64,000 nt of DNA from Thermodesulfobacteriota bacterium. GTDB lineage: Bacteria; Desulfobacterota_D; UBA1144; Nemesobacterales; UBA2774. Under the pieces are notes generated by a model that worked only from the letters and a program-made list of their open reading frames with translations, was not told the origin of the DNA and ran no database searches. Positions 42,447 through 62,916 of this stretch are shown piece by piece. Every line of letters starts with the position of its first letter. The stretch's first letter is position 1. The translations under genes and the position numbers were made by a program. The DNA is taken from assembly GCA_041753155.1 (NCBI GenBank), contig JBGSVA010000041.1, positions 7,583-71,582 on the forward strand. The letters run 5' to 3'.

Positions 42447-42562
42447 TAACTTATTAATCTCTCCTCCATATATATAGTTTTTACATAATGCCGTTCACTT
42501 TAATTACGACATCACCTACTTTATCCACACCACTGGTATACGCGAAAGTTAAAGCCTCATTT

Positions 42563-43384: not shown

Positions 43385-43740
43385 TATTTATTTAACCTCC
43401 TGTGCCGCTTCGATTTATCATCGAAGTATTTCATCCGGATTTAGTTATTTCGTCACCGGAGCTGAAATTAATGAACTCCACTTATTTTTTTCGAAAATGC
43501 TCAACAGGATTACATTGGAGAACAAAATCACAGTATCCATCCTCTGCGGGGCTTTTGTGGTTATTTTTAAGGCCTCTCCAATATATTTTGCTAGACCAGT
43601 ATACCTTGAAAACACACTTACAATAACATGCACATACATTATTGAAGCATTATACATATATTAATGTATTCGCGCAATTATAATCTCCTACTGTGCCGGA
43701 TATATAACATGAGAATTGTCTGAGGATATATAAGCTTTTC

Positions 43741-43935
43741 TCAGCCGAGGAGGCTCGAAAAAAAACTCCTCATTTCTTGAGAGAATTGCTTTCTTGAATA
43801 ACACCTTAGGGCAATGGACTGCATTTGTTCTATCTCCATAGCGAGCTCATCGGCGCTTTTATTATAAACTTCAATAATGCTTCCGGGAATATCCCTGCGC
43901 TTGATATATGTGTACTCACATCTTTGACCTATCAT
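43741..43935 (-). CDS. Candidate small protein (64 aa) translationally coupled to the upstream sulfotransferase
   Basis: ATGA stop/start overlap with the sulfotransferase. GGAG sits 8 nt upstream of the ATG. No homology is recognised. Confidence 0.3.
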   Translation of the reverse strand: MIGQRCEYTYIKRRDIPGSIIEVYNKSADELAMEIEQMQSIALRCYSRKQFSQEMRSFFSSLLG

Positions 43936-44813
43936 TCAGAAAACTCCGGCCAAAGGGAAGTATCAATTTCCGGAAACATCTTTATCATCGCCTGGACGTC
44001 CGGTGAATAATATCTTGCAAGACGTTCTCTTTCCTCTTTCGTGATATCCGGAATTTTATGCACTATACGATTGACGGGTCTCTCGGGGTTTGCGGGCTTA
44101 TACCCGTCATCAATTCCCAGAAATCTGTACGTTCGCGAAATCTCCGTATAAATATCCAGCTTGCACTTTTCATACTGCAATATCAGAATTTGATCGCGTT
44201 CGAAAAGGGATAAGAGCCTTGAAAGAGAAAACGAGAGGGAACTTTGCGTTATTGAATCAGGAAATACCCAAAACAATTCTACCATATGATTGAGGTCGGT
44301 TCCGAGATCAAAACGCTCGGAATATACAGATGTGAATTGATTTAAATGTGAGATAAACCTATCGATAGGGTTTCTGAGAACTATGAGAATTTTAGTCTCG
44401 GGAGCGGCTCCGGCCAAATAATCCAGGGCTAACGGGTACCAGAGATAACTCGGGGACCATTCTCCGCTTATACAGTTGTCGGGGGAGGCAAAGGCCTGAC
44501 GGTAAACGGAAATATCTTCCTTACTTATCCCATGAGTGCCGAAATGGTAGAAATAAGCGAGTTCCTTTTCTTTCAGTCTGTTCTCCACCACTTGTGGATG
44601 TTCCAGGAGCAACGAATACCACCAGGTAGTGCCAGCCTTAGGACTGGCGACACCTACGAAATCAGGGCCTTTGATCTTCCAGTTATCCGGTATCCGACAG
44701 AGATCCGACGTCCTGAAAGGGCGCGTCATAGGGGTATAAGCAGGGGGTCCGCCGGATTTTCCGGTCCTCGATGTTTTATTCCAAACGCTCTTTAATAAAT
44801 TCTTCATGACCAA
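43932..44813 (-). CDS. Sulfotransferase (PAPS-dependent, Sulfotransfer_3-like)
   Basis: 5'-PSB motif PKAGTTW and 3'-PB motif RNPIDR. Confidence 0.75.
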   Translation of the reverse strand: MVMKNLLKSVWNKTSRTGKSGGPPAYTPMTRPFRTSDLCRIPDNWKIKGPDFVGVASPKAGTTWWYSLLLEHPQVVENRLKEKELAYFYHFGTHGISKEDISVYRQAFASPDNCISGEWSPSYLWYPLALDYLAGAAPETKILIVLRNPIDRFISHLNQFTSVYSERFDLGTDLNHMVELFWVFPDSITQSSLSFSLSRLLSLFERDQILILQYEKCKLDIYTEISRTYRFLGIDDGYKPANPERPVNRIVHKIPDITKEERERLARYYSPDVQAMIKMFPEIDTSLWPEFSE

Positions 44814-44955
44814 TATCCGATTACCGGGAAATAACCTCGATCAAGTCTTCTAAATCGAAATTCATTGCAGCTTCATTTAGGTTCATGTAATTCTTATCGA
44901 ACATTTATCTCCACCCATTCGGTGGTGTAAAAAGCCCAATTTCTCATCTTTCACG

Positions 44956-45801
44956 TTAGCCATATCCCTTTCTTCTGCTGACCGTTCTTTTAATATATCC
45001 AGTGCAGTGCTCAGAACTTATGGTCCTTTTGTCACCCAGACTCCAGTCGTTTGCATAACCGTATCTCTCCATATATTCGGCAAACAACGGTTTGAAAAAA
45101 TCAACATCCTCCGGGAGGAACCAGTTCCTCCAGTCGCCATACCCCCTTGTCCTCGGGACATGGCTGTTTTCCTCGCCGACTTCAGCCTCGCCGGTCAGCC
45201 TGAACCCGAGGTACTGTTCAAGTCCCTGAAGGTCTCCGTCCACAAAATTCTCGTACCTGATCCTGCAATGCTCCCCCATCCTGCCCTCGAATCCATAGAT
45301 CCAATTTTGTTGACTTTTCATCCAATCGGCAACCTTACCTAGCGACTCGCCGGGTATTAAATTCAGAACCTGTTGTAATAATGAAACGAATGAGATACTT
45401 TCCGGGTTCTCTTCCTTTTTTTTGAACAGGGTTAATACAAAATCGAGATTGTCGTCATTTTCATATATAGACGGCGACTGTTGTATTAAGAACAGCAAGC
45501 CGCTTACGACCCAGTCCCTCGGGTCTCTGACTATGTAGATTTTTTTGTCGAATCCCATGAACGATGTGTAATTCGCGACCTCCCGCCCGTCCACGAATCC
45601 GAGAATAACCTTGGCTAATTCGGCCGGATAGGATTTAAGCGGTTCAGGAATGTAATTCACAGGTTCATTAAGAAGCCTGGCTCCGGCAGGGAGAGAGTTA
45701 TAAATTTTGTAGCATAATGCCGTAGTGCCTGATTTGTATTGGCCGAATATAACAATTCTTATCTTATCTGAAAAAGGTACAGTGAGTATCGTCCCAGCCA
45801 T
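44956..45801 (-). CDS. Sulfotransferase family protein (second paralogue)
   Basis: GQYKSGTTAL P-loop-like 5'-PSB motif. IVRDPRD 3'-PB motif. Confidence 0.65.
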   Translation of the reverse strand: MAGTILTVPFSDKIRIVIFGQYKSGTTALCYKIYNSLPAGARLLNEPVNYIPEPLKSYPAELAKVILGFVDGREVANYTSFMGFDKKIYIVRDPRDWVVSGLLFLIQQSPSIYENDDNLDFVLTLFKKKEENPESISFVSLLQQVLNLIPGESLGKVADWMKSQQNWIYGFEGRMGEHCRIRYENFVDGDLQGLEQYLGFRLTGEAEVGEENSHVPRTRGYGDWRNWFLPEDVDFFKPLFAEYMERYGYANDWSLGDKRTISSEHCTGYIKRTVSRRKGYG

Positions 45802-45870
45802 AATTGAATTTTACTATATTCGGAGTGAGGCTGATACCTTCAAATACTAAGGAGATGAATCCCAGCCTGC

Positions 45871-47874
45871 TCACGTAATCGTTCTTCGCCTAAAAAAATT
45901 CAATATCCTGAGAGGAACGATTTTTCTTACGGTGCTGTAGATTGTCCAGATAAAATAATTATTAATCAATGAGTTGCCGGTGGCCGGTTTACGTACTCCC
46001 GCATGTCTTTCAGCCAGGGCTCTCCTCAAATATCGGTTCTCCTCGTAAACCTCATCGATCCGCTTGATAAACCATTTTTCATAATCCCCGGTCTTGAAAT
46101 AGTCGCTGTATTTATCGTATATCTTAAAGCGCCACTCGTTGTAATTATAATCGCGCTCGGCGAATACCCTGTATTCCGCGGTGATACCGGGAAGTCTCTG
46201 TATATAGGTATGAGTCGCTATTCTGAGCCACAGGTCCCAGTCCTCATATATCTCGAGCCCTTCATCCGGATAATCAATCTCTTCGAGCAAAGCCTTCGCA
46301 AACATGAGGGTCATGTTTGGGATGTAGTTAAAGACATGCAGCTGATCGAGATCATGATCCACTCCTCTGAAAGGCTTCTTCTCACCTTTAAGTATGAACT
46401 CGCTGCCGTGCCACTCGTAACCGGCTATTTCGCAATCGCTGTATGCGGCTTTCTCGCCCGTCGTTTCAAGATATCTTGCCAGCTTCTCCACATGACCGAC
46501 ATGAAACAGGTCATCGTCGTCAAGAAAATTGATATATTTCCCCCCGGCAGCTCTAATCCCCTCGTTCCCGGCTGCTGACCGTCCCCTGGGTTCGTCGAAT
46601 TTGATATACCTTACGGGAATATATTTCTGGAATTCCTCTACGACCCCCGTAACATCCTCCCCTCCGTCATTTACAATGACGGCCTCGATGTTCGGATAAG
46701 TCTGCATAACGATGCTCGATAGAGTATCCCTAAGCAAAAGCGGCCTGTCTTTCGTACGCACTATTACAGAGACGAGAGGCGTATCTTCCTTAAACCGGTT
46801 AAAAGCGGACAAAAACTGTTCCCGTGAGAATTTCTCCACGTGATTATCAATCAGCTCTCCGCTCTTCATCAGAAAGAAACCCTCGGCGTAAGCGGCGGAG
46901 CTAAGCGTAAGGGAGCGGAAACGGTTAAGGGAGAGCGCTATGTCGGAGTAGGGAACATTTTCCAGCTGACTCTTGTACGCTTCACAGGCTTTCCGCTTGC
47001 GCTCGACCGCGGATGTGATATCGACAAGCGCGTTCACCCTGATCGCCGTGTTGATTTCACAGAATGCAATTACGCAGTCAGCACATGCTTTTTGCGCGGA
47101 ACGACAGACTATTTCGGCCGCTGCACGGTGGTCGGGATGGAATTCAAACGGCGACGGGACATAAATAAGGTCCGGTCTGTAGTTCTCCAGGAGCACGGAA
47201 AGACGGTCTATATTCCGGTTGTCAGGTTCGAGGCCCCTATCGGGGTTCCTCCAGAACTCGAGATCCGAAACTCCCAGTATTTCGCATGCCCTCCTGGCCT
47301 CGGATTCTCTCAATTCGACATAGTCCTCTTTCCTGTGCTTTCCGGAAAAATCGGCCTTCGACCCGTCGGTGAGGAAAACAACTTTTACAGGGTCACCGCT
47401 TTTCCGATGATGTATGATACTCCCGCCGCAGCCGAAGCATTCGTCATCAGGGTGGGGAGCGATCACCAGAACTTTGTTGCCTGTAAGCTCAGCCGCTTCA
47501 TACGGTATGATCTTCTCCTCGTGGAGGGTATTAAGAACGACAGGGCTGCCCGCCAATTCTTGCCCCGTCTCCCCGAAAATAAACTGTAATTCATGCCTCA
47601 CCCCGTCGAGATACCCGGAAGATATCCGGTATATGAACCCGTGATATCCCCTCCCATACCCTTTTTCCTTGAGGTCCCATCTGTAATAAGAAGGTGTGAA
47701 CCCGTCGACAGGATTCCCGCCTTCCTTCACGATAACACGTAAAGGCTCGTCCGGGCAGGACTTATCAAGCGCCCATCCCTTCACAATGGAATCGTCGTGA
47801 TATTCGATCTCGCCGATGTAATCGGATTCGGCCGCAGGCATGGACTTTCCAAATCTTTCCTTGATATATTTCAT
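45871..47874 (-). CDS. Three-domain protein: N-terminal unknown region, PIG-L/LmbE deacetylase and GT2 glycosyltransferase
   Basis: LVIAPHPDDECFGCGGS (PIG-L). VSVIVRTKDRP...VIVNDGGED...FLDDDD (GT2). Confidence 0.75.
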   Translation of the reverse strand: MKYIKERFGKSMPAAESDYIGEIEYHDDSIVKGWALDKSCPDEPLRVIVKEGGNPVDGFTPSYYRWDLKEKGYGRGYHGFIYRISSGYLDGVRHELQFIFGETGQELAGSPVVLNTLHEEKIIPYEAAELTGNKVLVIAPHPDDECFGCGGSIIHHRKSGDPVKVVFLTDGSKADFSGKHRKEDYVELRESEARRACEILGVSDLEFWRNPDRGLEPDNRNIDRLSVLLENYRPDLIYVPSPFEFHPDHRAAAEIVCRSAQKACADCVIAFCEINTAIRVNALVDITSAVERKRKACEAYKSQLENVPYSDIALSLNRFRSLTLSSAAYAEGFFLMKSGELIDNHVEKFSREQFLSAFNRFKEDTPLVSVIVRTKDRPLLLRDTLSSIVMQTYPNIEAVIVNDGGEDVTGVVEEFQKYIPVRYIKFDEPRGRSAAGNEGIRAAGGKYINFLDDDDLFHVGHVEKLARYLETTGEKAAYSDCEIAGYEWHGSEFILKGEKKPFRGVDHDLDQLHVFNYIPNMTLMFAKALLEEIDYPDEGLEIYEDWDLWLRIATHTYIQRLPGITAEYRVFAERDYNYNEWRFKIYDKYSDYFKTGDYEKWFIKRIDEVYEENRYLRRALAERHAGVRKPATGNSLINNYFIWTIYSTVRKIVPLRILNFFRRRTIT

Positions 47875-47898
47875 CGGATATCAGATCAAAAAATCGAT

Positions 47899-48942
47899 TC
47901 AGAACATATCGGTATCGCCCATTGTAAAATAAAGTCTCCTCGATAATTCATATGAATCCACATTTGAGTCCAAAGGTGTTGTTGTTATAAACAGCGCATA
48001 TGGATTCCCGCCTTCGCTCATATCTCTTGATTTCAGCACCTCTTTTGCTTCCTCATCATTACATAGCCACATTTCCACTTTTCTTGCCCCCAAAAGAACA
48101 GCCAGATTCCAGATCCGCCGCTCTAGTTCCGTAATAGTCGATGGATCCTTTCCATCCCATATCAAATCCACCCACTTAAGAATTCTGTCATCAAGGCTAA
48201 GCACAGCAAAACCATGCGGAACGCCATTGTCTACAACTATTAAATAATAGTATTTTTTTAGCGGATGGCTCAAATACCGCCGATGTATATATTCCATGTC
48301 TCTCACAGCCGAAACGGGGTAACGGACCGAAGCCCTCGACCACAACTCACCGATATAACTTAAATCTACATAGCTGCGGGAGGTAAGAAAACTCCATATT
48401 ATTCGACTCATTACGAGCCCGCGCACCCTATGAAATAAATTCAACCGTTTGCTGAGATATACGATAGGTACGCATTCCGTATAATTCATCATCAATCTGC
48501 CCAATTTCAGATGCCTCTCTCCCAGGCAGCCGTATAATAATGCAATGTTATCCTTGGCTCCGAATTGTGCGCGGAAAGCATCAAACGTTTTTATATATAG
48601 TTTTTTCCTGACTACATATTCCCTTTGAAGAGAATAGCAATCCACGGCCTGAGCGCAGTTCAGAATCTTTCCATTCATCTGTATTCTGGAAAGGAGGGTG
48701 GAGAAATTGACCAGAACCTCGTTATTTTCGTCAACAGCCAGCATTATGCGAGAGCCGGCGTCGCTGTCACGGCCGAATTTCCAGTACCATTCCTCTATAG
48801 TGCGATTCGCACCGAAGACCTCGTTGAAACCCCGGTTGATTGAGATTTCATCCCCTGTCTCATACGGCCGTATTGTCTGGCTATCCATTTGCATCAAGTG
48901 AGCCGACCGAGAATTTCTTAATCCTGTCCATAAGTGCTTCAC
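47899..48942 (-). CDS. Hypothetical protein, GNAT-fold/FemAB-like acyltransferase candidate
   Basis: It sits in the operon context. Weak resemblance to Acetyltransf_6-type proteins. No firm motif. Confidence 0.35.
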   Translation of the reverse strand: MKHLWTGLRNSRSAHLMQMDSQTIRPYETGDEISINRGFNEVFGANRTIEEWYWKFGRDSDAGSRIMLAVDENNEVLVNFSTLLSRIQMNGKILNCAQAVDCYSLQREYVVRKKLYIKTFDAFRAQFGAKDNIALLYGCLGERHLKLGRLMMNYTECVPIVYLSKRLNLFHRVRGLVMSRIIWSFLTSRSYVDLSYIGELWSRASVRYPVSAVRDMEYIHRRYLSHPLKKYYYLIVVDNGVPHGFAVLSLDDRILKWVDLIWDGKDPSTITELERRIWNLAVLLGARKVEMWLCNDEEAKEVLKSRDMSEGGNPYALFITTTPLDSNVDSYELSRRLYFTMGDTDMF

Positions 48943-48945
48943 GGA

Positions 48946-50085
48946 TCAAGTTTTTATAATCACATAAAAACCCTTGGTTTCCAAGCTGTCCATATCTGTC
49001 TCGAATAGACTCGATAGCTTTCTGAACCGCGCCGGGAGCTCGGTCTTCTGGGGGATTATTTTGTAAGAACTTATCCCGGACCTTTCTACCCAGTCTTCCA
49101 ATGTTCTTCTCGTGAAAAAGCGGAAATGCGTATAGCACAAAAGACCGATCGGGACATAATCCCATCTCCCTGCCAAGAGGTCTTCCACGACGGAGTAATG
49201 TCCGACGTTCGGCACGGATAGAACTATACGTCCCCCTGGTCTCAGTACCGATTTCATTTTTAAAAGAAAGTCTTCCGGGTAGTTCAGGTGCTCGAACAGC
49301 TCCGTAGCAAGGACGACGTCGTACTTCTCATCTATGTCCAGCTCCTGAATATCCCCGCAGATAACACGCGAAATGTGACTCCGCGCATCCGACGCGATGT
49401 CGGAGTTGAGTTCAACCCCCGTGACGCGGCATCCAAGCTTATTCTGTAGGAATTCGCCGGTAAGCCCACGCCCGCAACCTATTTCAAGAATCTCTTCGGC
49501 GCCTTCCGGAATATAGGGTAGTATGTCCTCCCTAATCTCGCCGTAATAGTCGATAAACTGATGGAATACGCCCGCATGGGTCGTCCGGTTTCCGAGCCTG
49601 AGGTTCTTGAAAAGCTCTTTGTCCGTCAATACCTCTTCCACGGATGTTCTATTCAATACTTCACGGAATGAATCTGCAGAGAAAAGGGATATCGGGAGGT
49701 GCGAGTCGTTCAATTCAAAGGGCTTATGGAATTCGTTGAATATGCGTTTTTCTATTAGCTCGTAACCGCGAATCGTATAGATAGGCGATTCACCCGTTAC
49801 TTTAAATTTAGATATAGAATTAGGTAATACGGCAGAGACCCGTGTATTCAGCGCATTTGTCATATGAATTAAGGTTTCCGCAGTGAAAAACAAATTCTCC
49901 TTACCCAGAACCAGAACGTAATCGGCTGCCGGCAGTAGAGGCTCTCCGCTGCCTTCACGCCAAACGAGTGTTTCGACCTCGAAGGCTTTTCTTGCCCGAT
50001 TAACGCAATATGAGAAGAGATACCTGAATTCAGGGGATTCGGCGTTTTCAGAGGTCAGATGTTTAAGAACCACCAACTTGGACAT
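48946..50085 (-). CDS. Two-domain protein with a C-terminal class I SAM-dependent methyltransferase
   Basis: ILEIGCGRGLTG ... LRPGGRIVLSVPN. Confidence 0.7.
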   Translation of the reverse strand: MSKLVVLKHLTSENAESPEFRYLFSYCVNRARKAFEVETLVWREGSGEPLLPAADYVLVLGKENLFFTAETLIHMTNALNTRVSAVLPNSISKFKVTGESPIYTIRGYELIEKRIFNEFHKPFELNDSHLPISLFSADSFREVLNRTSVEEVLTDKELFKNLRLGNRTTHAGVFHQFIDYYGEIREDILPYIPEGAEEILEIGCGRGLTGEFLQNKLGCRVTGVELNSDIASDARSHISRVICGDIQELDIDEKYDVVLATELFEHLNYPEDFLLKMKSVLRPGGRIVLSVPNVGHYSVVEDLLAGRWDYVPIGLLCYTHFRFFTRRTLEDWVERSGISSYKIIPQKTELPARFRKLSSLFETDMDSLETKGFYVIIKT

Positions 50086-50185
50086 TTGTCTCCGGTGACT
50101 GCTCTAACGATTATCAGATGTTACCAGCAGGCGTCGAAATTTAAACCAATTAAGTATTATATTCAACCGTTCTCCGAATCGTTTT

Positions 50186-51073
50186 TTAAGGCTTGGGAAC
50201 GGCTTTCCGGCCGTGTCTTATAGAAATATATTCCCCGAGGGCTTCCTCCCATTGCCTGAGCCTTCTTATTCCTGCGCTTTCCAGTTTTGCATTATCGAGG
50301 ACGGAATATCGGGGCCTTTCGGCTCTTGCCCTGTATTGTTCCGATGTGACCGGGACTACATCGGGGCTCACACCCGCCGCATCGAAGATAGCCGTCCCAA
50401 ACCGATACCACGAGCATTCCCCGGAATTCGTGATGTGGTAGGTACCGTAGTCTTCTTCTTCAAGCAGTTCCGCAATCTTTAAGGCAAGGTCCCGCGTGAA
50501 TGTGGGAGACATCACCTGATCGTCGACTATCTTTATCCGTCCCCCATTCTCAGCGAGTCTTATCATGGTCTCTACAAAATTATGTCCGCGTTTTGCCGGA
50601 AGCCCCAGGCCGAAAAGCCCCGAAGCACGGATGATGAAATGCCGGTCGCACTTACCCATTACCAATCTCTCGCCATCGAGCTTTGAAATACCATAGGCGT
50701 TCAGGGGATGAGGCTCGTCTGTCTCCGTATACGGCTTTCCCTTTTTTCCGTCGAACACATAGTCGGAGCTGATATAAACACAAACCGCACCTGCCCCGGA
50801 GCAAGCGTCCGCGACATGACCCGCGCCCTCCGCATTTAGCAGCATCGCATACGCAGAATCAATTTCACAGCCGTCTACATCTGTATGCCCCGCCGCGTTG
50901 ATTACTATGTCGGGCGTGTGATGACCGATAGTGCTAAATACCGAGTCCCTGTCAGTCAGGTCGAGTTCAAGCCTTCCGGCAGAAATAACACCATAGCTCT
51001 CTTTTTCACGGAACACGTGTACGAGGTCAGCGCCTAGCTGTCCTGTCGGACCGATTATCAATACCTTTTTCAT
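50186..51073 (-). CDS. rfbD: dTDP-4-dehydrorhamnose reductase
   Basis: MKKVLIIGPTGQLG plus an RmlD-like sequence. YxxxK is present. Confidence 0.85.
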   Translation of the reverse strand: MKKVLIIGPTGQLGADLVHVFREKESYGVISAGRLELDLTDRDSVFSTIGHHTPDIVINAAGHTDVDGCEIDSAYAMLLNAEGAGHVADACSGAGAVCVYISSDYVFDGKKGKPYTETDEPHPLNAYGISKLDGERLVMGKCDRHFIIRASGLFGLGLPAKRGHNFVETMIRLAENGGRIKIVDDQVMSPTFTRDLALKIAELLEEEDYGTYHITNSGECSWYRFGTAIFDAAGVSPDVVPVTSEQYRARAERPRYSVLDNAKLESAGIRRLRQWEEALGEYISIRHGRKAVPKP

Positions 51074-51209
51074 CCCGGGAATCTAGTTTAACAGATACCG
51101 TATAAACCTGTCTCATTCGATTGATGATAACCTGGCTCTAAATCGAAAAAACAAGTAACTAATATTATCTACAAGCCAGCCGCATCCGATCACAATCGAT
51201 GAATAATTG

Positions 51210-51412
51210 TGGCGGAGGGCGAGGGATTCGAACCCCCAAGTCCTTGCGGACGCCGGTTTTCAAGACCTATATCGCGCACGTTCTTAAGTCTCCAGAATTG
51301 TTGAAATATTTCTAATTCCCCTTTAATAAACGAATTCCATCTATTCCATATGGTCTACTGAGTATATATGATTCGAATAATTACGGATGGTTCTTAGAAA
51401 ATGCTTGGAAAG
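51210..51412 (-). repeat. tRNA-Ser(UGA) 3'-half fragment (51210-51267) plus a ~145-bp conserved arm. This is copy T2.
   Basis: The minus strand reads ...GGGGGTTCGAATCCCTCGCCCTCCGCCA. The arm shares ctttaataaacgaattccatctattccatatggtcta and ggatggttcttagaaaatgctt with T3. Confidence 0.75.
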
Positions 51413-51532
51413 AAAAGACGCAACTCTATCCCGCATAGATACCGGGACACCTCGATGATTACAGTCGACGTGAGCATATTAATTGGAGCCTGATAGAGGC
51501 CTATCGTTATATCTTTCTACAAAAGTTTTCAC

Positions 51533-51561
51533 TTGACATTATACCTACTAGTAGATAGAAT
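51533..51561 (+). promoter_or_regulatory. Sigma70 promoter (TTGACA-N17-TAGAAT). A CTACTAGTAG palindrome (51545-51554) sits in the spacer. The downstream TetR transcript is predicted to be leaderless.
   Basis: The hexamers and palindrome are read directly. The ATG at 51569 lies ~7 nt after the -10 and has no SD sequence. Confidence 0.6.
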
Positions 51562-51568
51562 ATTTGTC

Positions 51569-52135
51569 ATGAGCAACGAAGTGTCTGACAAAATATTAGA
51601 TGTTGCGCTGGATTATATAATGGGAAGAGGTTATAAAGCCTTCAGCTATAAAGACATTTCCAAGGAAATCGGCATTAAAACGTCGAGTATTCACTATTAT
51701 TTCCCAACCAAGGGCGATCTCGGCAAAACATTGGCCCAAAGATTCTTCCAATACATTACAGAGGCGTTAGAGTTAATCGATAAGACCACCGAAGATCCAA
51801 AAGAAAAAATCAGAAAATTCATACGTATTTTTTATGAAAACTTAAAATCAGGCAATAGGGCGTGCCCGGTTGCAATGCTATCATCAGACTATGAAAATCT
51901 GCCGGAGGAAGTTAAACGAGAAGTAATTAACCTTATTCAATTGCAGGAAACATGGCTTGCGAAAGTGTTGGAATCGGGTATCAAAAAGAAGGTCTTTAAA
52001 TTTTCGGGCAAGCCGAACGATAAAGCTAAAGCGATCTTTTCCGCCATTGAAGGCGCAACAATAGCATCCAGAGCATTTTCTGATCCGGGCAGAATACTTA
52101 TAACGGAAGATTTGATCATGAATAGCATTACCTAA
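51569..52135 (+). CDS. TetR/AcrR-family transcriptional regulator
   Basis: N-terminal HTH (YKDISKEIGIKTSSIHYYFPTKGDL). Confidence 0.85.
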   Translation: MSNEVSDKILDVALDYIMGRGYKAFSYKDISKEIGIKTSSIHYYFPTKGDLGKTLAQRFFQYITEALELIDKTTEDPKEKIRKFIRIFYENLKSGNRACPVAMLSSDYENLPEEVKREVINLIQLQETWLAKVLESGIKKKVFKFSGKPNDKAKAIFSAIEGATIASRAFSDPGRILITEDLIMNSIT

Positions 52136-52150
52136 AAAATTTTAAAACCC

Positions 52151-52178
52151 GTATCTATCTAGTGCTAGATAGATACGA
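52151..52178. promoter_or_regulatory. Perfect 13-bp-arm palindrome CGTATCTATCTAG-tg-CTAGATAGATACG. It is a probable TetR operator upstream of the hydrolase gene.
   Basis: Exact inverted repeat. The half-sites resemble the palindrome inside the TetR promoter. Confidence 0.5.
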
Positions 52179-52290
52179 ATATGCGTACAGGAGGGAATTA
52201 AATGAAGACAAAAATATATAGGTAACATTTGACGAAATTTTATTGTGCTTTCGGCAACAGCAAATTATCAAATTTAAGGAGACAATAAAA

Positions 52291-53319
52291 ATGAGCATAT
52301 TAACCATAAGTAGAATCGCAATGTATGCAGTACTCATATTAACGTGGACAGTAAGCCCACTTGTTATCAATGGTAGTAATCTATTTAGTTCACCTGTAAT
52401 AGCAAAAGAGCAGTCCATAAATAATTACCCCATTCTATATAAAACCGTGAAAATCGACGGACTCGATATATTTTATCGAGAAGCCGGACCGAAAGATGCT
52501 CCGACTATTATTCTGCTTCACGGCTTTCCCACATCATCACATATGTTTCGGAATCTAATTCCTGAACTCTCGGACACATACCATGTGATCGCCCCCGATT
52601 ACCCAGGATTCGGATACAGCTCAATGCCTAGTGTCGATCAATTCGAATACACATTCGACAATCTGGCCTTGGTAATTGAGAAGCTTATAAACAAATTAGA
52701 GCTAGGAAAATATAGCTTATACCTTCAGGACTACGGTGCCCCGGTGGGATTTCGTATTGCTGAAAAGAACCCGGATAAAGTCGAGGCTCTTATTATTCAA
52801 AACGGCAATGCTTACGATGAAGGTCTACGTGATTTTTGGATTCCGCTCAAATCCTATTGGAAAGAAAGGACTCCAGCTAATGCAGAACCCCTTAAAGCAT
52901 TTCTGACTCTGGATGCAACTAAGTGGCAGTTCACGCACGGAGTTCGGAATGTTGACACAATTAGTCCCGACAATTGGAACCACGTTCAACCGCTTCTTGA
53001 CCGTCCCGGTAATCAGGAAATACAGCTGCAACTTTTTTATAGTTATGGTTCGAATCCGCCCCTGTATCCTTCCTGGCAAGCTTATCTAAGAAAATATCAG
53101 CCTCCGACTCTAATAGTTTGGGGTAAGAACGATCAGATATTCCCGGCTGAGGGCGCATACCCGTACAAGCGTGATTTAAATAATCTTGATTTCCATTTGC
53201 TCGATACAGGACACTTTGCTCTCGAAGAAGATTTGCATGTAATTGCTTCTCTAATCAGGAGTTTCCTGGATAAAAACGTTATTCAGAAATCCACAATGGA
53301 AAAACAGGCCGAGAAATGA
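52291..53319 (+). CDS. Secreted alpha/beta-hydrolase (epoxide hydrolase/haloalkane dehalogenase-like)
   Basis: AAGGAG RBS and a signal peptide. [11 protein letters not shown] is the oxyanion region. The nucleophile elbow is LQDYGAP. Confidence 0.75.
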
Positions 53320-53416
53320 TGGTCTAATCAGACAGTGCTAAAGAGAGACGTCAGAGTGTGTAATTAAAGCATGAGAGGTGGCGAATAAAATAAGAATTAT
53401 CAAATAAGTAGATTAT

Positions 53417-53620
53417 TGGCGGAGGGCGAGGGATTCGAACCCCCAAGTCCTTGCGGACGCCGGTTTTCAAGACCTAATTAGTATCCATTCTTAACTTTCC
53501 GGGATCATTGAAATATTTTTAACTCCCATTTAATAAACGAATTCCATCTATTCCATATGGTCTATTGATTCTATATGGTGGCAAGAATTACGGATGGTTC
53601 TTAGAAAATGCTTAGAAAAT
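53417..53620 (-). repeat. tRNA-Ser(UGA) 3'-half fragment (53417-53474) plus conserved arm. This is copy T3.
   Basis: Fragment identical to T2. The arm is diverged proximally but conserved distally. Confidence 0.75.
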
Positions 53621-53744: not shown

Positions 53745-56700
53745 CTACCGCGGGTTATCGCTTTTTGAGGAAACGAAGCCGGTTCGCGGAGATACATAAT
53801 AACGAAATGTAATGCCTGCAGACCATTCCGTAAAATCTGCCGACTGATTCACGTCCCCGAAGACACCTAACGCTGTATGATGAGTTAGCAGTTTGAGGGC
53901 CTCTATATTGAAATCGTACCCGATACGGGAGGTGCTTTCTCCCTTGAATTCCCCAACGGAATCTTTTCCTCCGAGCGGGAGGAAGGGGGAGTCCTCGGTG
54001 CGGAAATAGAGATAGCCTACCGCAGCTTCTGCATTCAAATAGTAGGATTTGTAGGGTTTCGTCTTTATGCCGAGTGTGGGGCCGGCCATCAGGAATACAT
54101 CGGGACTGAAGTAGCCTCCGTGTCCGAAGGTGAAGAAATTCGAGTTCCGTTCGAAATGCTGTGTGGTGAAAAAGAGTCCGAGAGAATAATCCAGGACATT
54201 CCGTGAAAAAGTCTTGCCCGCGGATACCGTTCCGTTGATTGCGTTGTTGCCCTTCACGTTATCGCCCCAGTAATAATCATAGCCCGCTAGGAGGGTCAAC
54301 CAATAAGGGGAGGAAGGTATGATGTTGAGCTCGGCTTCCGCGCCTGTCTGCAACACCCTCCCCCATTCTCTCCCGCCATAAGGGTCTTTCAGGCCCGTGT
54401 AGGACAGTATGGACTCCATTACCGGATACTGGTGAAGGTTTATCCGCCACCTGTCCTGTTTCATTTCAAAGGTAAGGGTGGGAAGAGGATATACGGGCCC
54501 GTTAAGAGGAGTCGTTCCGACTTCGATATCGAGATTTATAACTCCCTCCTTCTCGAAACTAATATTAGGGGTCAAGACCCATAAGGAATTAATCAGACTC
54601 CTTATCTGCGGATTCCCCTTAGGGGCGGTCCCGACGAATGGGGCTTCCGGTGTGCGGCCCGAATATAGCCATTGAGTCGTGAACGAAAACCGGACGTCGT
54701 TACCCCATTTGAACGGATATGAGAATCCGGCAGACAATGAAAACACGCTTAGTTCGGATATCCCGGAATCGCCGGTCTTGTGACCGAACCACGGTCGGAA
54801 TTCGAAGTACAATTTGTCGGAATTACTATACGGGGCGTCGGAATCGGGGTTGATTTGGGCGGCGGTAAGGAACATATTGTGTGAAGCGAAGTATGAACCT
54901 GACACCTCCCGGAAGTCTTTGCCTCCTCCTTTGCCCGCCACATAGCTGAATCTGATGGCGTCATTTCGTCTTCCGAGCTTCTCATAGGTATTGAGGATCG
55001 CTTCCGCGATTTTTGCTTCTTTCTCACTCTCATAAACAGATAGGAATATATCGAGCGCCCGGTCATATTCCCCTTTGCCGTACAATGTCCAGGCCAGCAG
55101 CGTCTGTGCATCCTTATTTTCGGGAGCAATGCTTAACACCCTTTCCAACATCCTCTCCGACCCGGCATAATCTTTTTGTTCGTACAACCTGTTCCCGATT
55201 TTAAGATATATTTGAGATTCAATCTTGTTCTTCTCCGCTTGCTCCAAATCGGACTCTCTTAATAATCCAAGGGCCTTGTCTTCCTCGTTAAGTGCTATGA
55301 GGACGTATATCAGGCCCAGCGTGGAATCGTCATTTGCCGGGTGCTGTTCGTGAAGATACGAAAATATTTCATAAGCCTCCCAGTAGTTCTTTGCATTGTA
55401 GTACTTCCAAGCTTTCGTCAGGAGCGCATCCGGGTCCTGCGGGTCGATAGCTAATATTTCATCCGCCAGTTCTTCGGCCTGAGCAGTATCATCTAAAGCA
55501 ACAGAAAGCCGTTCCTTTAAAACATTCAGGTACAGCTCCGACAGCTGCTCCTTGTATTTAGGAAGCAAACCAGCCCGCTTCATCTCCTCGCCTATGAGTG
55601 GTTTTATTTCGGAATACACGGAATTGGATTTCAGTCCGTAAAACGCGGCGATCCTCAAATCCCAATCATCGGCGCATGCCGAGAGGAGACTATAATAGAT
55701 TCTCCGGGCTTCTTCCTTCCTGCCGCTCTTGTCGAGTATGTTCGCAGCATCGTAAAAAATCCAAGGGTCGTTGCACCTGTCCAATCTGTTTTTATAGTCA
55801 TTGACGAAGCCGATCAGCGCTTCGGTATTGTGCGTCTTTTTCGCTCTTGCGAACTGCCGGGAGATGAGGGGCTGCTCCTGACGCCGGCTCTTCCTTTCCT
55901 CTATTATCTTCCTCCATTCTTCCCTCTCGCCCTCGCCGAGAGCCAATATATAAAGGGCCGCTTTATCATAGTCCTTCATTTCTATTAAGAGGTTGAGCAA
56001 GCTCGGGAGGGTTTCTTTGATTTGATAATTCTGCCCCACAATTAATTCGAGCAGTGCGGCAGCGTCTGCCTTTCTGTCAAGTTTAATATAGCAATATGCG
56101 AGCCCCAGTCTTGCCTCCGACAGGGTATCGGCGTTTTTCTCGGCTTCTTTGAAATAATTAAGCGCTTCGCTACACATGCCCGCCTTATACCCCCTCCATC
56201 CCCGGTCCAAATATTGTCTGGCCTCATCAAAAGAAACTACATCGGTAATTTCTTCGGAACTCGTTACTCGTCCTGTTCCAAGCTGTTCTTTCCTCAACAC
56301 GTCCATTAAGTTAGTCTGACCGCTTTTGCTCTCCGACACCGTGTCGGAACCCGGAGACTGCTCGATCGATTCCTGATTCGGACTTACACTCCTGACATCA
56401 GAAGAGTGCTGTTCCCGAGAAAGCGTCAGGACGTTTGAATTTCGGTTATTCTCCGGAGCGGTGTCCGCAGAGCGGCCGGAGGGAATTTCAAGGACTACGT
56501 GCCTTTCAGACTTAGGGAGGCTCACGATCGTGGCATCCCTGAATCCCGATTCCTTGAGTGTGCTTAAGTTGGAAACGAGAGCTCCTTTTATGCCGGAACT
56601 GCCCGCCCTCACGATATATGAGTTCCCGGACCTTTCTACCGTTACAGTTATGACGACCTTTTTCGACACAAGATTCGCAAATGCAGCTGCCGAATCGAGG

Positions 56701-56801
56701 TTTGCAAATGATGCGATTTCAATCGTGTATTCGTTCTGGGGTTCGGCTAAAGCTGGAAGGTCCACAGCTACGATAAACAATAAGATCAGAGCGGCTTTCA
56801 A
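53745..56801 (-). CDS. bcsC: Cellulose synthase operon protein C: signal peptide, SPOR-like N-terminal domain, TPR repeats and a C-terminal outer-membrane beta-barrel
   Basis: It is the last gene of bcsABZ-. Multiple TPR-like helical repeats. The C-terminal ~380 aa are beta-rich, with an aromatic C-terminus. Confidence 0.7.
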   Translation of the reverse strand: MKAALILLFIVAVDLPALAEPQNEYTIEIASFANLDSAAAFANLVSKKVVITVTVERSGNSYIVRAGSSGIKGALVSNLSTLKESGFRDATIVSLPKSERHVVLEIPSGRSADTAPENNRNSNVLTLSREQHSSDVRSVSPNQESIEQSPGSDTVSESKSGQTNLMDVLRKEQLGTGRVTSSEEITDVVSFDEARQYLDRGWRGYKAGMCSEALNYFKEAEKNADTLSEARLGLAYCYIKLDRKADAAALLELIVGQNYQIKETLPSLLNLLIEMKDYDKAALYILALGEGEREEWRKIIEERKSRRQEQPLISRQFARAKKTHNTEALIGFVNDYKNRLDRCNDPWIFYDAANILDKSGRKEEARRIYYSLLSACADDWDLRIAAFYGLKSNSVYSEIKPLIGEEMKRAGLLPKYKEQLSELYLNVLKERLSVALDDTAQAEELADEILAIDPQDPDALLTKAWKYYNAKNYWEAYEIFSYLHEQHPANDDSTLGLIYVLIALNEEDKALGLLRESDLEQAEKNKIESQIYLKIGNRLYEQKDYAGSERMLERVLSIAPENKDAQTLLAWTLYGKGEYDRALDIFLSVYESEKEAKIAEAILNTYEKLGRRNDAIRFSYVAGKGGGKDFREVSGSYFASHNMFLTAAQINPDSDAPYSNSDKLYFEFRPWFGHKTGDSGISELSVFSLSAGFSYPFKWGNDVRFSFTTQWLYSGRTPEAPFVGTAPKGNPQIRSLINSLWVLTPNISFEKEGVINLDIEVGTTPLNGPVYPLPTLTFEMKQDRWRINLHQYPVMESILSYTGLKDPYGGREWGRVLQTGAEAELNIIPSSPYWLTLLAGYDYYWGDNVKGNNAINGTVSAGKTFSRNVLDYSLGLFFTTQHFERNSNFFTFGHGGYFSPDVFLMAGPTLGIKTKPYKSYYLNAEAAVGYLYFRTEDSPFLPLGGKDSVGEFKGESTSRIGYDFNIEALKLLTHHTALGVFGDVNQSADFTEWSAGITFRYYVSPRTGFVSSKSDNPR

Positions 56802-57835
56802 TTATTTAATCCCGTGGCTAATAGATAAAGGGTGAAGGAATAATAATCGTCTTTCTCTTCAGTCAATTTGAGTTTCGCGTCGGTGAAAAGCTCATCGCTT
56901 AAACTATCATCGCCCATTATTTTAGCGGCGCGAGCCAGGACCGCGTAAAATCCTGCCGGCGCGGACTGTAATGATATGCTGTTATCCTCTAGATTTACCC
57001 ATATAGGTACGTAGCCGTTCTTCCGATATATGTTCAATATCCCCTTTATCCCCTTGGGGAACTCGTCCTTTGCATCCATGGATAGATAGAGAAGCACCCT
57101 GATTGCCTCATATCCGAAATACTCGCTCCTCTCCGCAAATACGGAAAAACCGGACCCATTCGTAATGATCCAATCGGCCGGAAGGTTGAGACTGGAAAAC
57201 AACGCCTCGGACAGAACCGAGCTGCTGCTTTTATATACTTTATCCCAAAAGGTCTTGTCGTCGACTCTTGAAAAGGCTCGGAACGCCGGAAGAATCAAAT
57301 ACGAAGGGTTTATTATAAAATCCTCACCCCTGGTGAATCCGTAATAAGCGGGCAGGAGAAGTGTGCGTCCCTTATGGGTAAAGGCGAGCTCCTCCCTGAT
57401 CGCTATAATGATATTTGATGCATTATCAGTATAGGATTTATCTCCCCACTTTTGCCCGGCCTCCAATAGTGCGTAGGCGATCAGAATGTCTCCGTCCGTG
57501 GCGTTGTTGTAATCGATGATCCCCCATGTCCCGTTCGCCCTCTTTCCCCAGAGCCAGCAGTGGAGTCCATCTTTTCTGGCACGGAGGTTATTATTTGTCC
57601 ACTGCCGAATTTTTTCGAACAACTCCCTATCATCGTGAATCACCGCCAATAGCATTACGTACCCCTGCCCTTCAGAATGAGATGCCTTATTCTGATAGTA
57701 GTCGATAACGCGTCCGTCCTCGCTTATGAAATGCTCCTTATATAATTCCCAGCCGTACTGCTCCCCGGCGCTGTAACTGGCGTGAATAAAGAGGAGCAAC
57801 AAGCAACTGATTATAGGATAGCTTTTAACTGCCAA
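56798..57835 (-). CDS. bcsZ: Endoglucanase, glycoside hydrolase family 8
   Basis: Signal peptide. SEGQGYVM (GH8 catalytic Glu region). DGD motif. Confidence 0.8.
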   Translation of the reverse strand: MAVKSYPIISCLLLLFIHASYSAGEQYGWELYKEHFISEDGRVIDYYQNKASHSEGQGYVMLLAVIHDDRELFEKIRQWTNNNLRARKDGLHCWLWGKRANGTWGIIDYNNATDGDILIAYALLEAGQKWGDKSYTDNASNIIIAIREELAFTHKGRTLLLPAYYGFTRGEDFIINPSYLILPAFRAFSRVDDKTFWDKVYKSSSSVLSEALFSSLNLPADWIITNGSGFSVFAERSEYFGYEAIRVLLYLSMDAKDEFPKGIKGILNIYRKNGYVPIWVNLEDNSISLQSAPAGFYAVLARAAKIMGDDSLSDELFTDAKLKLTEEKDDYYSFTLYLLATGLNN

Positions 57836-60068
57836 CTCTTCCGCTCCTGTTTCTCCTCAGTACATAGTAGATGCTGAAGGTTAAAGCCACGAATGCAAGA
57901 ACCAGCAATACGAAGTAAGCTGATCTCGAACTGTTGAATAATGATTTTAGTTTGTCACCGCTTTTCTGATTACCAGCATAGTAGCTATTCCCCAGGGTCT
58001 GTGACATGACATTATACTCGCCGTCCTTAAAATCGACCAGAACTAAGTCACCGTTAGCCCCGCCTTGCACCGACGTCTTCCCGAGTGCTCGGCTCAAGGC
58101 GAGCAAATCGTTCGGCGTGGCTGCTGTAACGAGGAGCAGGGAGCGACCGGACTGGTAGGGGGACTGGAATTCCATTACCGACCCCTGGCCTTCTCCTAGC
58201 CCGCCTGTCTGTTCCATATAGACCGTCTCATCAGCGAGGGCAAGTTTCTGCTCCGAGTTTCCGGATATATAATTCCTTATTCGTTTCCAGGCGGGAACGG
58301 ACCCGTCCAAACTCATGCTTTTAACCAGCGGGTAAGGCGCGGTCACCATAGAGCCGTACTTTAACGGCGCTCTATCCTTGATGTCTTCCGGCATGTTCCC
58401 TATGTCTCCGACTGCGATGATCTCTCCCTTCCAGTCCCGAGGATTGTCGATGACAACGTTTAACCGCAGCTGCGGGTAACCGATCTTCTGTGTCATGATC
58501 CCTATAAGGTTCAAAGCCGAGCCAACCGTATCGTCGTCTGCTGATGCCACATACAGTGCAGTCTCCCTACCGTCGGGCCACCTCGTAAAGGGGAAGCCGT
58601 CCTGGAAGAACAGTTCGATCTTAGGCAATCCTATCCAGTGAGACAATGAGGGGAACCGAAACGTGGAGTCACCGAATATCGTTAAAAAAAGATTCTCGAC
58701 CCGGATCAATTCGCAGCGCCCGCTAACTGAAGGCGTCAGCACCGGTTCAAACCTGATTGCGTTGTCGCCATTATTAAAGAGATATATCGGGATCGAAATC
58801 TTATAATCGCTGAATACTGCACCGTTTGGATTATTAAGTGGTATGGCGGCAGCCAGTTGGTTATTCAAGCGGATGTTGAGAACAGAATCAGAACGCATTC
58901 CCGCTCCGTACGCGAGATGGAGATAAAGGTCCGCGTATTGATTCTGCTCGAGAAGAAGGTCAGCCGGCAATCTAACCGGCAGGTTCTTCGGCTCGGGTGT
59001 AAATCCGGTGAAAGTGGCGCTAGAGAATCCCATGTCGCTAAATGCGTAAGTCTCTCCAGGATCAAGAATTGACTTTCCCGAATACGGTGTGACTTCAGGT
59101 AGTATTACCTGTGTTATGTCAACCCTGTCGGCATCCGGGAATGGGAACGAAAGTACTGCCAGCGATGTTGCAGCCAACTTCATCTCCTCAAAATTATTGC
59201 CGGATACAATAATGAGCGCTGCTGTACCATTTGGAGCAGGATTGTCGAGAGTGCGGCCCGTAGGTGCATCTTGGGAAGCCAGGACATGTGCTATCTGGAG
59301 ATAGGGTCCGTCAATACTTATATCGCTATCGCCCAGAATACTTTCGACAAACTCTTTTCTTCCTATCACAATATTATCCACTCCGGGCATAATATTTTTG
59401 GAAAAATTGAAATCGACCTGCCTGTAATCGAACCTGAGAGCTATACCAGAGGCTACAATGCTTGCGAGAGAAATTGATTCCTGAGACCCGTCTTCGGTAA
59501 CAATATTTATTTTTCCATAAGGGAGGATCTTCGGGTCGAAAAGGAAACCGGGTATGGACGACAGCTTAAGTGGAACGGGCTTCATATCGTATTCAAGCTC
59601 TATGAATGCCTTGTCTAGCGATAGCGTAGTCCAGAGCTCAGGCGCACACGGCACCTCACAGTCCATTGTATAATGCTGCGAGACGTAGAAAGTCAGGTCG
59701 TTATAGCCCGAGTCCAGAAGCTCCCCGGGAAGACGAACCCTTGCCTTCCCCTCGGGGGCCAAAGGATTTAACTCTATCTGTGCTAGTGGATAGCCGTTCA
59801 ATTTCAGAACCAGACGTGAGTTCTGCGGTAGAAGCGCCGAGGAGTTGACGTAGCTGAAATCGATGAAACCACTTTTGATTCTCCATCTCTCGGGTATAGG
59901 AAGCTTAATATTGAACTCTGCTTCCGAACATTTGAGGTTGGTAATCCCGACCGGCGCTACTTCATGAAGGGGTATTTTAACGGCAGCCGCTCCGGCTCCG
60001 AAGACAGGATACAACAGTGTTGTAAATAGGAAATATTGAACGAATTTTATTACTCTCACTTTATTCAC
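57825..60068 (-). CDS. bcsB: Cellulose synthase periplasmic regulatory subunit B
   Basis: Signal peptide, a ~720-aa periplasmic region and a C-terminal TM anchor. It lies immediately downstream of bcsA. Confidence 0.75.
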   Translation of the reverse strand: MNKVRVIKFVQYFLFTTLLYPVFGAGAAAVKIPLHEVAPVGITNLKCSEAEFNIKLPIPERWRIKSGFIDFSYVNSSALLPQNSRLVLKLNGYPLAQIELNPLAPEGKARVRLPGELLDSGYNDLTFYVSQHYTMDCEVPCAPELWTTLSLDKAFIELEYDMKPVPLKLSSIPGFLFDPKILPYGKINIVTEDGSQESISLASIVASGIALRFDYRQVDFNFSKNIMPGVDNIVIGRKEFVESILGDSDISIDGPYLQIAHVLASQDAPTGRTLDNPAPNGTAALIIVSGNNFEEMKLAATSLAVLSFPFPDADRVDITQVILPEVTPYSGKSILDPGETYAFSDMGFSSATFTGFTPEPKNLPVRLPADLLLEQNQYADLYLHLAYGAGMRSDSVLNIRLNNQLAAAIPLNNPNGAVFSDYKISIPIYLFNNGDNAIRFEPVLTPSVSGRCELIRVENLFLTIFGDSTFRFPSLSHWIGLPKIELFFQDGFPFTRWPDGRETALYVASADDDTVGSALNLIGIMTQKIGYPQLRLNVVIDNPRDWKGEIIAVGDIGNMPEDIKDRAPLKYGSMVTAPYPLVKSMSLDGSVPAWKRIRNYISGNSEQKLALADETVYMEQTGGLGEGQGSVMEFQSPYQSGRSLLLVTAATPNDLLALSRALGKTSVQGGANGDLVLVDFKDGEYNVMSQTLGNSYYAGNQKSGDKLKSLFNSSRSAYFVLLVLAFVALTFSIYYVLRRNRSGRVGS

Positions 60069-60086
60069 CTTGTGTTTAATAATGTT

Positions 60087-62357: not shown

Positions 62358-62916
62358 TTCTACCTGAGAAGCATGAATCAGCTTTAAGATGCATTTGCTG
62401 CATTATAATTATCTTTATTGTGTAACGTGCAAAAACTGTGCCAGAGTTTGTTTTTGGATGCAATTGGTTGTAAGCAAAGGATATTTTCACCGGAATGTCC
62501 AAAAACCGTCATATTGATTGACAAATTTTGCCAGTAATACTCAATGAGTGACCTAAAGACGTTTTCTGTTCGCCGGATAAATTTCTTCTCGATTCGGAAT
62601 AAGTGAAAAAGTAGTTATTTAAATTATATGTCGCCCATGTTCTTTAGAGAGATATAGCGTGCCTGGAGGGAGTTGACCACCAAAGCTTTGTATCCTTAAC
62701 ATGATTTGAGGATATGTCCCGTACTTCAGGAAGAACTTCACAGCTTTCCTCAGATGCATCTAAATCACCCTCAATTTGTATGACAATCTTATAAAATAGA
62801 TTTTATTAATTGTCGCAGGGAATTATAACTCATTGAGATGATTGGTATTATATTACGAATTAACGCCGCCGACTCCAGCCATATGATCTTTTTATCATGC
62901 ATGGAAGAAAGAATGA

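Follow-up and report, generated by a model that had tools for sequence, protein, structure and literature searches.

In this study, we have analysed a 64,000-nt stretch of DNA from a Thermodesulfobacteriota bacterium (assembly GCA_041753155.1, contig JBGSVA010000041.1, positions 7,583-71,582 of the forward strand; hereafter the window) and, in particular, a small AT-rich cassette made of a gene for a TetR-family regulator and a gene for an alpha/beta hydrolase, which lies between two copies of a repeat that we call T (Table 1). A repeat search of the window finds these copies, T2 (51210-51411) and T3, as direct repeats with 87% identity (176/202 positions overall), spaced 2207 nt start to start; it places a third copy, T1, at 31934-32135, and the T4 remnant corresponds to the distal 67 nt of the arm only. 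The repeat consists of 58 nt of the 3' end of tRNA-Ser(UGA), hereafter the core, and an arm of ~145 nt, the core being the reverse complement of the 3' part of the tRNA from three anticodon-stem pairs to the CCA end. By exact counts, T2 and T3 share 58/58 core positions, 36/52 positions of the proximal arm and 82/92 of the distal arm; T1 shares with T2 55/58 positions of the core and 49/52 of the proximal arm, beyond which it is truncated. A 20-mer of the core and a 21-mer of the arm occur three times each in the window, with 0.00-0.01 copies of each expected from shuffled sequences, and CTTAGAAAAT is found twice, 11 nt apart, at the end of T3 (53600-53620). According to ARAGORN, the 64-kb window has no complete tRNA, and no Rfam family matches it at gathering score, T3 aligning to the Rfam tRNA clan below threshold only. 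An earlier reading of this DNA (the original prediction) had claimed that the cassette is bracketed by direct repeats with a tRNA fragment and ~145 bp of arm, and this is borne out by the comparison of T2 and T3.

Table 1. Features of the T repeats, the TetR-hydrolase cassette and their surroundings (positions are those of the window unless a contig is named)
Feature	Position	Strand	Remarks
T1 left flank			RTX-repeat gene and rsmI backbone, collinear with L031, L094, L095 and L042
T1, putative oldest copy	31934-32062	-	tRNA-Ser 3' fragment (31934-31991) and truncated proximal arm
Segment 1, polysaccharide-synthesis cluster	32063-51209		YfhO, glycosyltransferases, methyltransferases, rmlD; ends at T2
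rmlD	50186-51073	-	Pfam; left neighbour of the cassette
T2 core	51210-51267	-	58-nt tRNA-Ser(UGA) 3' fragment, CCA end at 51210
T2 arm	51268-51411	+	P'-type, probably the cassette's own; terminates in TTCTTAGAAAATGCTTGGAAA (51391-51411)
Promoter-like site TTGACA-17-TAGAAT (11/12)	51533-51561	+	Before tetR; kept in L002 and L012
TetR-family regulator, 188 aa	51569-52135	+	From likely ATG; PF00440, TetR_C_13
Perfect 13-nt inverted repeat CGTATCTATCTAG nn CTAGATAGATACG	52150-52177		Between tetR and the hydrolase gene
Alpha/beta hydrolase, 342 aa	52291-53319	+	From likely ATG; Pfam; haloalkane-dehalogenase-like
Cassette right-end flank (X side)	53320-53416		Adjoins the T3 core
T3	53417-53618	-	Core 53417-53474; arm 53475-53618, probably of the next unit
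Segment 3, bcsC-bcsZ-bcsB-bcsA cellulose synthase operon	53745-62357	-	Copper genes instead in L002
bcsC	53745-56801	-	Followed by bcsZ, bcsB and bcsA (Pfam)
T4 remnant	62879-62945	+	Distal arm only, 79% to T3; contains TTCTTAGAATATTCTTAGAAA
S-cupin126 unit	L042 7307-8000 and L030 1-199; L031 265-1147; L082 4358-5003		

The body of the cassette, with a guanine plus cytosine (GC) content of 0.396 where the window as a whole has 0.503, ranks among the lowest 0.24% of 2-kb windows, and the GC content at third codon positions (GC3), 0.43 for the TetR gene and 0.39 for the hydrolase gene, is the lowest in the window. Elsewhere GC3 amounts to 0.60-0.77 to the left of T1, 0.48-0.64 in the segment between T1 and T2 and 0.52-0.57 in the bcs genes. 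The marked AT-richness that had been proposed for the pair is thus confirmed, also by the windowed analysis. According to Pfam, the cassette encodes only TetR_N/TetR_C and Abhydrolase domains, and the integrases associated with T in other loci, used as tblastn queries, gave no match and no remnant in the window, in agreement with the predicted lack of a mobility gene of its own. The right flank of the cassette contains neither an arm-type motif nor a remnant of an integrase gene. In a BLAST comparison of the whole cassette with plasmids and phages, T and the TetR gene found no match; the only matches were distant ones to the hydrolase gene (64-68%), and the cassette thus corresponds to no known plasmid or phage module.

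Related loci were gathered through hydrolase homologues, by searching genome contigs for the 30 nt of the tRNA fragment that are invariant, and by searching metagenome contigs for the arm motif; an arm-motif scan of viral contigs gave 0 matches. The closest metagenome-assembled genomes (MAGs) carry the label delta proteobacterium, Thermodesulfobacteriota or Candidatus Dadabacteria. One metagenome contig, L089, shares ~91% identity with the window across the polysaccharide genes and rmlD, and presents, in this order, a T copy, a glycosyltransferase family 2 (GT2) gene, YfhO, a methyltransferase gene, another GT2 gene, rmlD, the 60-nt left flank of T2, an intact tRNA-Ser(tga) gene (7738-7823) that matches the T core at 58/58 positions, and the gene of a 119-aa cupin (cupin119), with the TetR-hydrolase pair absent. 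This alignment shows that the position of T2 is that of the tRNA-Ser gene, L089 apparently representing the site without the cassette. In another contig, L099, which is 91.6% identical to the cassette, the end of the TetR gene, the hydrolase gene, the flank to the left of T3 and the 58-nt core are followed by GGTGCATTAGC, which agrees at 11/11 positions with the 5' half of the L089 tRNA, is unlike any arm, and coincides with the end of the contig. Since the core of L099 runs on into the 5' half of the tRNA, the cassette would once have directly abutted tRNA-Ser, and we infer from these 11 nt that a complete tRNA stood at the T3 position of L099. The X flank precedes the core in L099 and likewise in L103. 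A further state is found in L002-L007, ~91-93% identical to the window in the flanking genes, which carry rmlD, 27 nt of T2, the TetR and hydrolase genes and a full T3, after which AT-rich small open reading frames (ORFs) and copper genes are present in place of bcs. In L002 (5556-5604), T2 retains only its first 27 nt, after which comes unrelated sequence up to the point where the region upstream of tetR resumes; T scars, being cut down to this extent, decay quickly.

The presence and absence of the cassette among relatives, which the original prediction had named as a check, with an empty site bearing an intact tRNA in L089 and the cassette against a tRNA core in L099, agrees with the minimal, compositionally foreign islet, acquired by att-type recombination, that had been predicted. 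The arrays of more distant relatives, alike in architecture but with other cargo, also close on an intact tRNA-Ser, as L089 does. The contiguous L042 and L030 present rsmI, the RTX gene, T, a DUF1254/DUF1214 gene, T, the gene of a 126-aa cupin (cupin126), intact tRNA-Ser and cupin119, and L082 presents the RTX gene, an HTH and a DUF2975 gene, an arm remnant, cupin126, intact tRNA-Ser and cupin119. The remaining contigs with hydrolase homologues (L097, L098, L008 and L103) show other contexts or are broken inside the core, so that their junctions are uninformative. A homologue search with the RTX-repeat protein encoded to the left of T1 returned generic RTX proteins only, with no orthologues.

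A different arrangement is found in L012 and L011 (~83% identical), in which rsmI and the RTX gene are joined straight to the TetR-hydrolase pair, followed by a porin gene; there is no T, and the 19.6 kb corresponding to positions 31887-51531 of the window are absent. Our first working idea, taken from L012, was that the pair is backbone and its neighbours are islands. In that case TetR-hydrolase would be ancestral chromosome, with T1 to T2 and T3 to T4 as the real insertions, and the divergence of the cassette, which tracks that of its neighbours (86% vs 89-93% in L002; 83% vs 84% in L012), would be accounted for. We dropped this idea on the grounds of composition and of L089 and L099. The GC3 of the pair is far below that of the backbone in all three lineages, being similarly atypical in L002 and in L012 (0.47-0.48 vs 0.65-0.72 in the latter); in L089, an intact tRNA stands at T2 and the pair is missing; L099 continues from the pair into the tRNA core and 11 nt of the 5' half; and the orientation of core and arm places the arm of T2 on the side of the cassette. 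An ancestral origin of the pair at this place is accordingly highly improbable, and the T-less arrangement of L012 may be explained by the fast decay of the scars. As judged from the same identities, the cassette is neither recent nor strain-specific, having apparently diverged roughly in step with its neighbours.

The T module is found beside a tyrosine integrase gene (PF00589) in two metagenome loci, L092 and L085. In L092, the start codon of the integrase gene is 116 nt to the left of the core, the interval contains AAGCTTAGAAAATGCTTAGAAAGC, and CTTAGAAAATGCTTAGAAAG is present on both sides of the core, the motif also closing the arm on the other side. In L101, an intact tRNA-Ser(tga) is followed by 115 nt containing CTTAGAAAATGCTTAGAAAGG and then by an integrase gene whose product is 79% identical to that of L092; L100 has the same arrangement, with an integrase 90% identical to that of L092. 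A motif of CTTAGAAA in two copies is thus common to the arms of T and to the arm lying between tRNA-Ser(UGA) and the integrase gene elsewhere. At other tRNAs, both integrase and motif differ: L085 (6300-8951) encodes a 49% identical integrase beside a tRNA-Arg(CCU)-like fragment, with a pair of TTCTTTGAG on both sides, and in L102 (6037-7353) a 52% identical integrase gene follows tRNA-Arg(ACG) behind TTCAAAGAA in two copies. The 9-mers hence form direct pairs with a spacing of 11 nt, flank the core on both sides and change together with the integrase, from which we infer that they are arm-type binding sites of the integrase. The T-associated integrases score best to the XerC/XerD/XerA models, yet below every curated cutoff. 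Genes for a coupling-protein-like ATPase and a Replic_Relax protein lie on the element of L085 that starts at the T-type arm, which makes this element mobilizable or conjugative; AbiU2 and PD-(D/E)XK genes are also carried by L085. The sequence just to the right of T is the same in L092 as in L085, the L092 locus ending ~200 nt past T. With regard to cargo, L092 (422-9379) holds a type I system (HsdM, HsdS and a large neighbouring ORF) and a YgjP-like peptidase gene, and L100 (1227-4558) an N6_Mtase/HSDR_N fusion; integrase-bearing elements at tRNA-Ser carry restriction-modification genes.

In an alignment of ten copies, the T module extends precisely from the CCA end to ...GGTTCTTAGAAAATGCTTAGAAAG, and the sequences past either end are unrelated among the copies. 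T is therefore a discrete module of ~203 nt with sharp ends, present in several copies per genome, which is what would be expected of an autonomous small repeat, similar to a miniature inverted-repeat transposable element (MITE), a repetitive extragenic palindrome (REP) or a tRNA-derived short interspersed element (SINE), that landed on both sides of a pair that never moved. This explanation is, in our judgement, extremely improbable. No terminal inverted repeats were found in T, and T3 folded as single-stranded DNA does no better than its shuffles (z +1.43, with 185/200 shuffles folding at least as well). The copies are confined to one locus, bounded by the RTX gene and the tRNA, and all have the orientation of tRNA-Ser, with which they are collinear; the tRNA itself (intact in L089, core and 11 nt in L099) is found at the same positions; and T adjoins integrase genes along with the matching motif. 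A MITE in the strict sense is ruled out by the lack of terminal inverted repeats, the single locus and the single orientation.

Taken together, these observations lead us to consider it very probable that the TetR-hydrolase pair is a 2,207-bp integrase-less unit that was recombined site-specifically into the 3' part of tRNA-Ser(UGA), to the right of rmlD. The unit comprises the arm of T2, the cargo, the right flank and one 58-nt core. Before insertion, a tRNA-Ser(UGA) gene would have stood on the minus strand just to the right of rmlD, and an integrase of the family, supplied in trans by a co-resident element or once encoded on the unit and later lost, would have bound the paired 9-mers as arm-type sites. 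Recombination of an attP site (X, core, arm) with the tRNA would leave on the left the flank, core, arm and cargo, that is, an attR-type scar (T2), and on the right X, the core and the 5' half of the tRNA, that is, a regenerated tRNA. The change from the L089 state to the L099 state would then be a 2,207-bp insertion of arm, TetR-hydrolase, flank and one core. In the step from the L099 state to the window, an element carrying bcs would have integrated in the regenerated tRNA, the T3 arm replacing the tRNA 5' half; the lineage of L002 would have received another element, with the copper genes, at the T3 step. Because integration leaves core and arm to the left of the cargo, each T would belong to the unit on its right.

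According to this scheme, two claims of the original prediction have to be modified. An insertion between rfbD (rmlD) and bcsC had been proposed, and the insertion stands; the site does not, since the target was probably tRNA-Ser(UGA) and bcs came separately, as indicated by the copper genes of L002. Moreover, rmlD is the end of an older T-delimited segment. Recombination between att-like repeats had also been proposed, and its att-type nature is retained, but T2 and T3 would be the products of successive integrations, both attR-type scars, and not the substrates that inserted the cassette. Recombination between the identical cores of T2 and T3 could nevertheless excise a 2.2-kb circle.

Several observations weigh against this model. 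The right flank of the cassette lacks the integrase-proximal arm motif, which makes its present mobility doubtful, and within the 64-kb window we see neither an integrase of this kind nor an intact tRNA-Ser. Binding of the 9-mers by the integrase is derived from their position and covariation only. The evidence for the tRNA in L099 consists of 11 nt at a contig end, and L089 could be a secondary deletion, by recombination of T2 with the tRNA, instead of an ancestral empty site. In L012 and L011, the pair stands beside the RTX gene with neither T nor tRNA, and an extra loss or rearrangement is needed. As for the order of arrival, L089 argues that the polysaccharide segment came first, and L012 that the cassette came first, with a later integration in the attR scar; either order requires one extra loss. 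We consider that the unit either was integrated in trans or is the leftover of a larger element that had decayed before the L099 state.

The cassette appears to be one of a series of acquired segments. From 31934 to at least 62945, the window can be read as a tandem array in the order T1, polysaccharide cluster, T2, TetR-hydrolase, T3, bcs and T4 remnant, which may extend past position 64000 and whose GC3 is below that of the backbone throughout; the three core mismatches and the truncated arm of T1 fit its being the oldest scar. Segment 1 is absent between the RTX gene and TetR in L012 and is present in a shorter version in L089. It is mosaic: position 36403 of the window is joined directly to 50325 in L089, the window lacks a GT2 gene and the complete distal arm that come after T in L088 and L089, and L002 is devoid of the methyltransferase region 48993-50215. 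In other relatives, a unit that we call S-cupin126 comprises a spacer S, the 126-aa cupin gene and a flank beside tRNA-Ser. Two MAGs with a backbone identity of 80.1% share this unit at 98.3% identity over 893 nt, and a third has it at 94-95%; integrase-less small units at this locus are therefore exchanged horizontally. At the head of S-cupin126, all that is left of the tRNA end is the 8-nt TGGCGG(T/A)G, an indication of a second, shorter att type at this tRNA-Ser. We rejected cupin126 as native backbone beside tRNA-Ser, given this remnant and a conservation far above that of the backbone.

Such exchange could also proceed by homologous recombination, with the highly similar T modules (58-200 nt) serving as portable homology for the RecA-dependent gain, loss and swapping of the cassette and its neighbours with related strains and integrases having made the first scars only. 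The 58 identical nt and the 89% identical distal arm shared by T2 and T3 would provide that homology, the contents of the segments are mosaic among relatives, and no integrase gene is near S-cupin126, for all its identity between MAGs with 80% backbones. We nonetheless hold this route to be improbable as the origin of the cassette, because it does not explain why the junctions fall exactly at the tRNA 3' fragment with an intact tRNA at the end of the array, nor the integrase-specific paired 9-mers in the arms, and it also requires homology on the far side of each unit.

The small size of the units raises the question of how they originate. The TetR-hydrolase, DUF1254/DUF1214, HTH plus DUF2975 and cupin units measure 0.9-2.4 kb and none has an integrase gene, which hints, as does the high identity of S-cupin126 between MAGs, that circles of one or two genes and a T module are integrated, excised and passed between lineages by a trans-acting Xer-like integrase, in a tRNA-anchored form of cassette capture resembling that of integrons; if so, the small units may never have been decayed larger islands. 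We regard this as unlikely, though not negligible. With integron cassettes, the units share their tiny size of 1-2 genes, the lack of recombinase genes, the stacking at one site and the repeated recombination module in between. In contrast, T has no attC-like hairpin, the recombination site is the 3' end of a tRNA, the units are in mixed orientation and the cassette has its own promoter-like site (11/12), integron cassettes being mostly promoterless and co-oriented, and there is no IntI, attI or Pc. An integron gene cassette proper is ruled out by the fold of T, the cassette's own promoter, the mixed orientation and the absence of IntI.

Classical islands and prophages that target tRNA genes with tyrosine integrases have attP sites of the lambda or P4 type with arm-type sites. 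The system described here has in common with them a core identical to the 3' part of the tRNA, an integrase gene that adjoins an intact tRNA, and paired direct repeats with helical spacing on both sides of the core (L092, L085); the cassette differs in having a single arm and neither integrase nor excisionase. Of the hallmarks of a tRNA island, the 3' direct repeat and the unoccupied site (L089) are present, and an integrase of its own is lacking; an intact target tRNA at the far end of the array is seen in relatives (L089, L030 and L082).

A parallel is offered by cis-mobilizable elements (CIMEs), which together with tandem accretion have been defined on ICESt1/ICESt3-related islands of Streptococcus thermophilus (Pavlovic 2004; Bellanger 2011; cited in PMC5704250). 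A three-step scheme of integration, decay to a CIME and further integration at an att site has been described (PMC5704250), and the L089, L099 and window states are compatible with it. As in a CIME, integration and transfer genes are absent from the cassette, the sites that bound it would be att sites of an integrase-bearing family, with the cores intact on both sides and the P'-type arm with its CTTAGAAA pair present, and the units are in tandem at the 3' end of the target gene. The differences are that the cassette targets tRNA-Ser(UGA), belongs to an uncultured lineage, measures only 2.2 kb and keeps the P'-type arm only, its right flank being without the integrase-proximal motif. We thus regard the cassette as CIME-like, probably one unit of a tandem array. 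In the close parallel of Dehalococcoides, the ssrA islands are also in tandem, each bounded by a 20-bp stretch that repeats the 3' end of ssrA, and their low-GC cargo varies from strain to strain; 15 of the islands, which lack an integration module, were put forward as CIMEs (McMurdie 2011, PMC3146451). Tandem islands after a small-RNA gene, 3'-end repeats, low-GC cargo and strain-variable content are shared with the locus analysed here. However, the target there is a transfer-messenger RNA (tmRNA) gene, the repeat has 20 bp and the recombinase is the serine recombinase DsiB, compared with a 58-nt core, a one-sided 145-nt arm and Xer-like tyrosine integrases here.

With respect to the genes of the cassette, a 24-nt imperfect palindrome (51538-51561) overlaps the promoter-like site, and positions 51533-51561 are likely the promoter and operator of tetR. 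The half-site TAGATAGA is common to this palindrome and to the perfect inverted repeat between the two genes, which is 100% conserved in L002 and L099 and, on account of the shared half-site, is likely a second operator. Most likely, then, the two related palindromes allow TetR to repress both its own promoter and the hydrolase gene; no equivalog model was reached by the TetR protein. The hydrolase has an HGFP motif, and the Asp of its LQDYG aligns with the nucleophile of DhaA; the match to DhaA (PDB 8oe6, E=3.5e-22), which includes this Asp, covers chiefly the N-terminal half. A haloalkane dehalogenase as cargo was rejected, the score of 105.8 bits with the NCBIfam dehalogenase model PRK03592 being far below its curated cutoff of 241. 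Because it falls below this cutoff and has the DhaA nucleophile aligned, the predicted product is an Asp-nucleophile alpha/beta hydrolase related to haloalkane dehalogenases. What the original prediction observed is thus confirmed apart from the label 'secreted', for which only a hydrophobic N-terminal stretch (residues ~9-27) speaks. An exact-protein look-up of the hydrolase returned no record, and that of rmlD only a 3.2-kb contig broken inside T2; the same rmlD allele is present in SRR28170468. Hydrolase homologues with 84-85% amino-acid identity are found without TetR and without T in L008 (357-3942) and L098, where a sigma-54 activator gene precedes them and an isochorismatase gene follows; given this other context, the hydrolase gene travels between regulatory contexts.

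To the left of T1, a second repeat family, unrelated to T, occupies intergenic positions 15455-15637, 20707-20885 and 30068-30246; its copies, of ~180 nt and 74-97% identity, contain a hairpin-like stretch, with spurious sub-threshold Rfam matches only. Upstream of rsmI, positions 29918-30058 are 97% identical to L012, compared with ~84% in the neighbouring genes, and match no Rfam family; this region may be an unannotated RNA or regulatory element.

All together, our results provide a stepwise record, taken from public metagenomes, of the accretion of small units at a tRNA gene: an empty site, one unit in, the next unit in. Current concepts are unchanged, tandem accretion and integrase-less CIMEs being already established, and the present case is distinguished from the known ones by its tRNA-Ser(UGA) target, the Xer-like integrases, the long core with a one-sided 145-nt arm and the very small unit. 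Genetic tests are impossible in this uncultured lineage. An anonymous 200-nt repeat is now tied to a family of Xer-like integrases and to probable arm-type sites. For the organism itself, the right half of the window, including the polysaccharide cluster, the TetR-hydrolase pair and the cellulose synthase operon, would be acquired and exchangeable DNA, which affects what may be inferred from it about core metabolism or surface biology.

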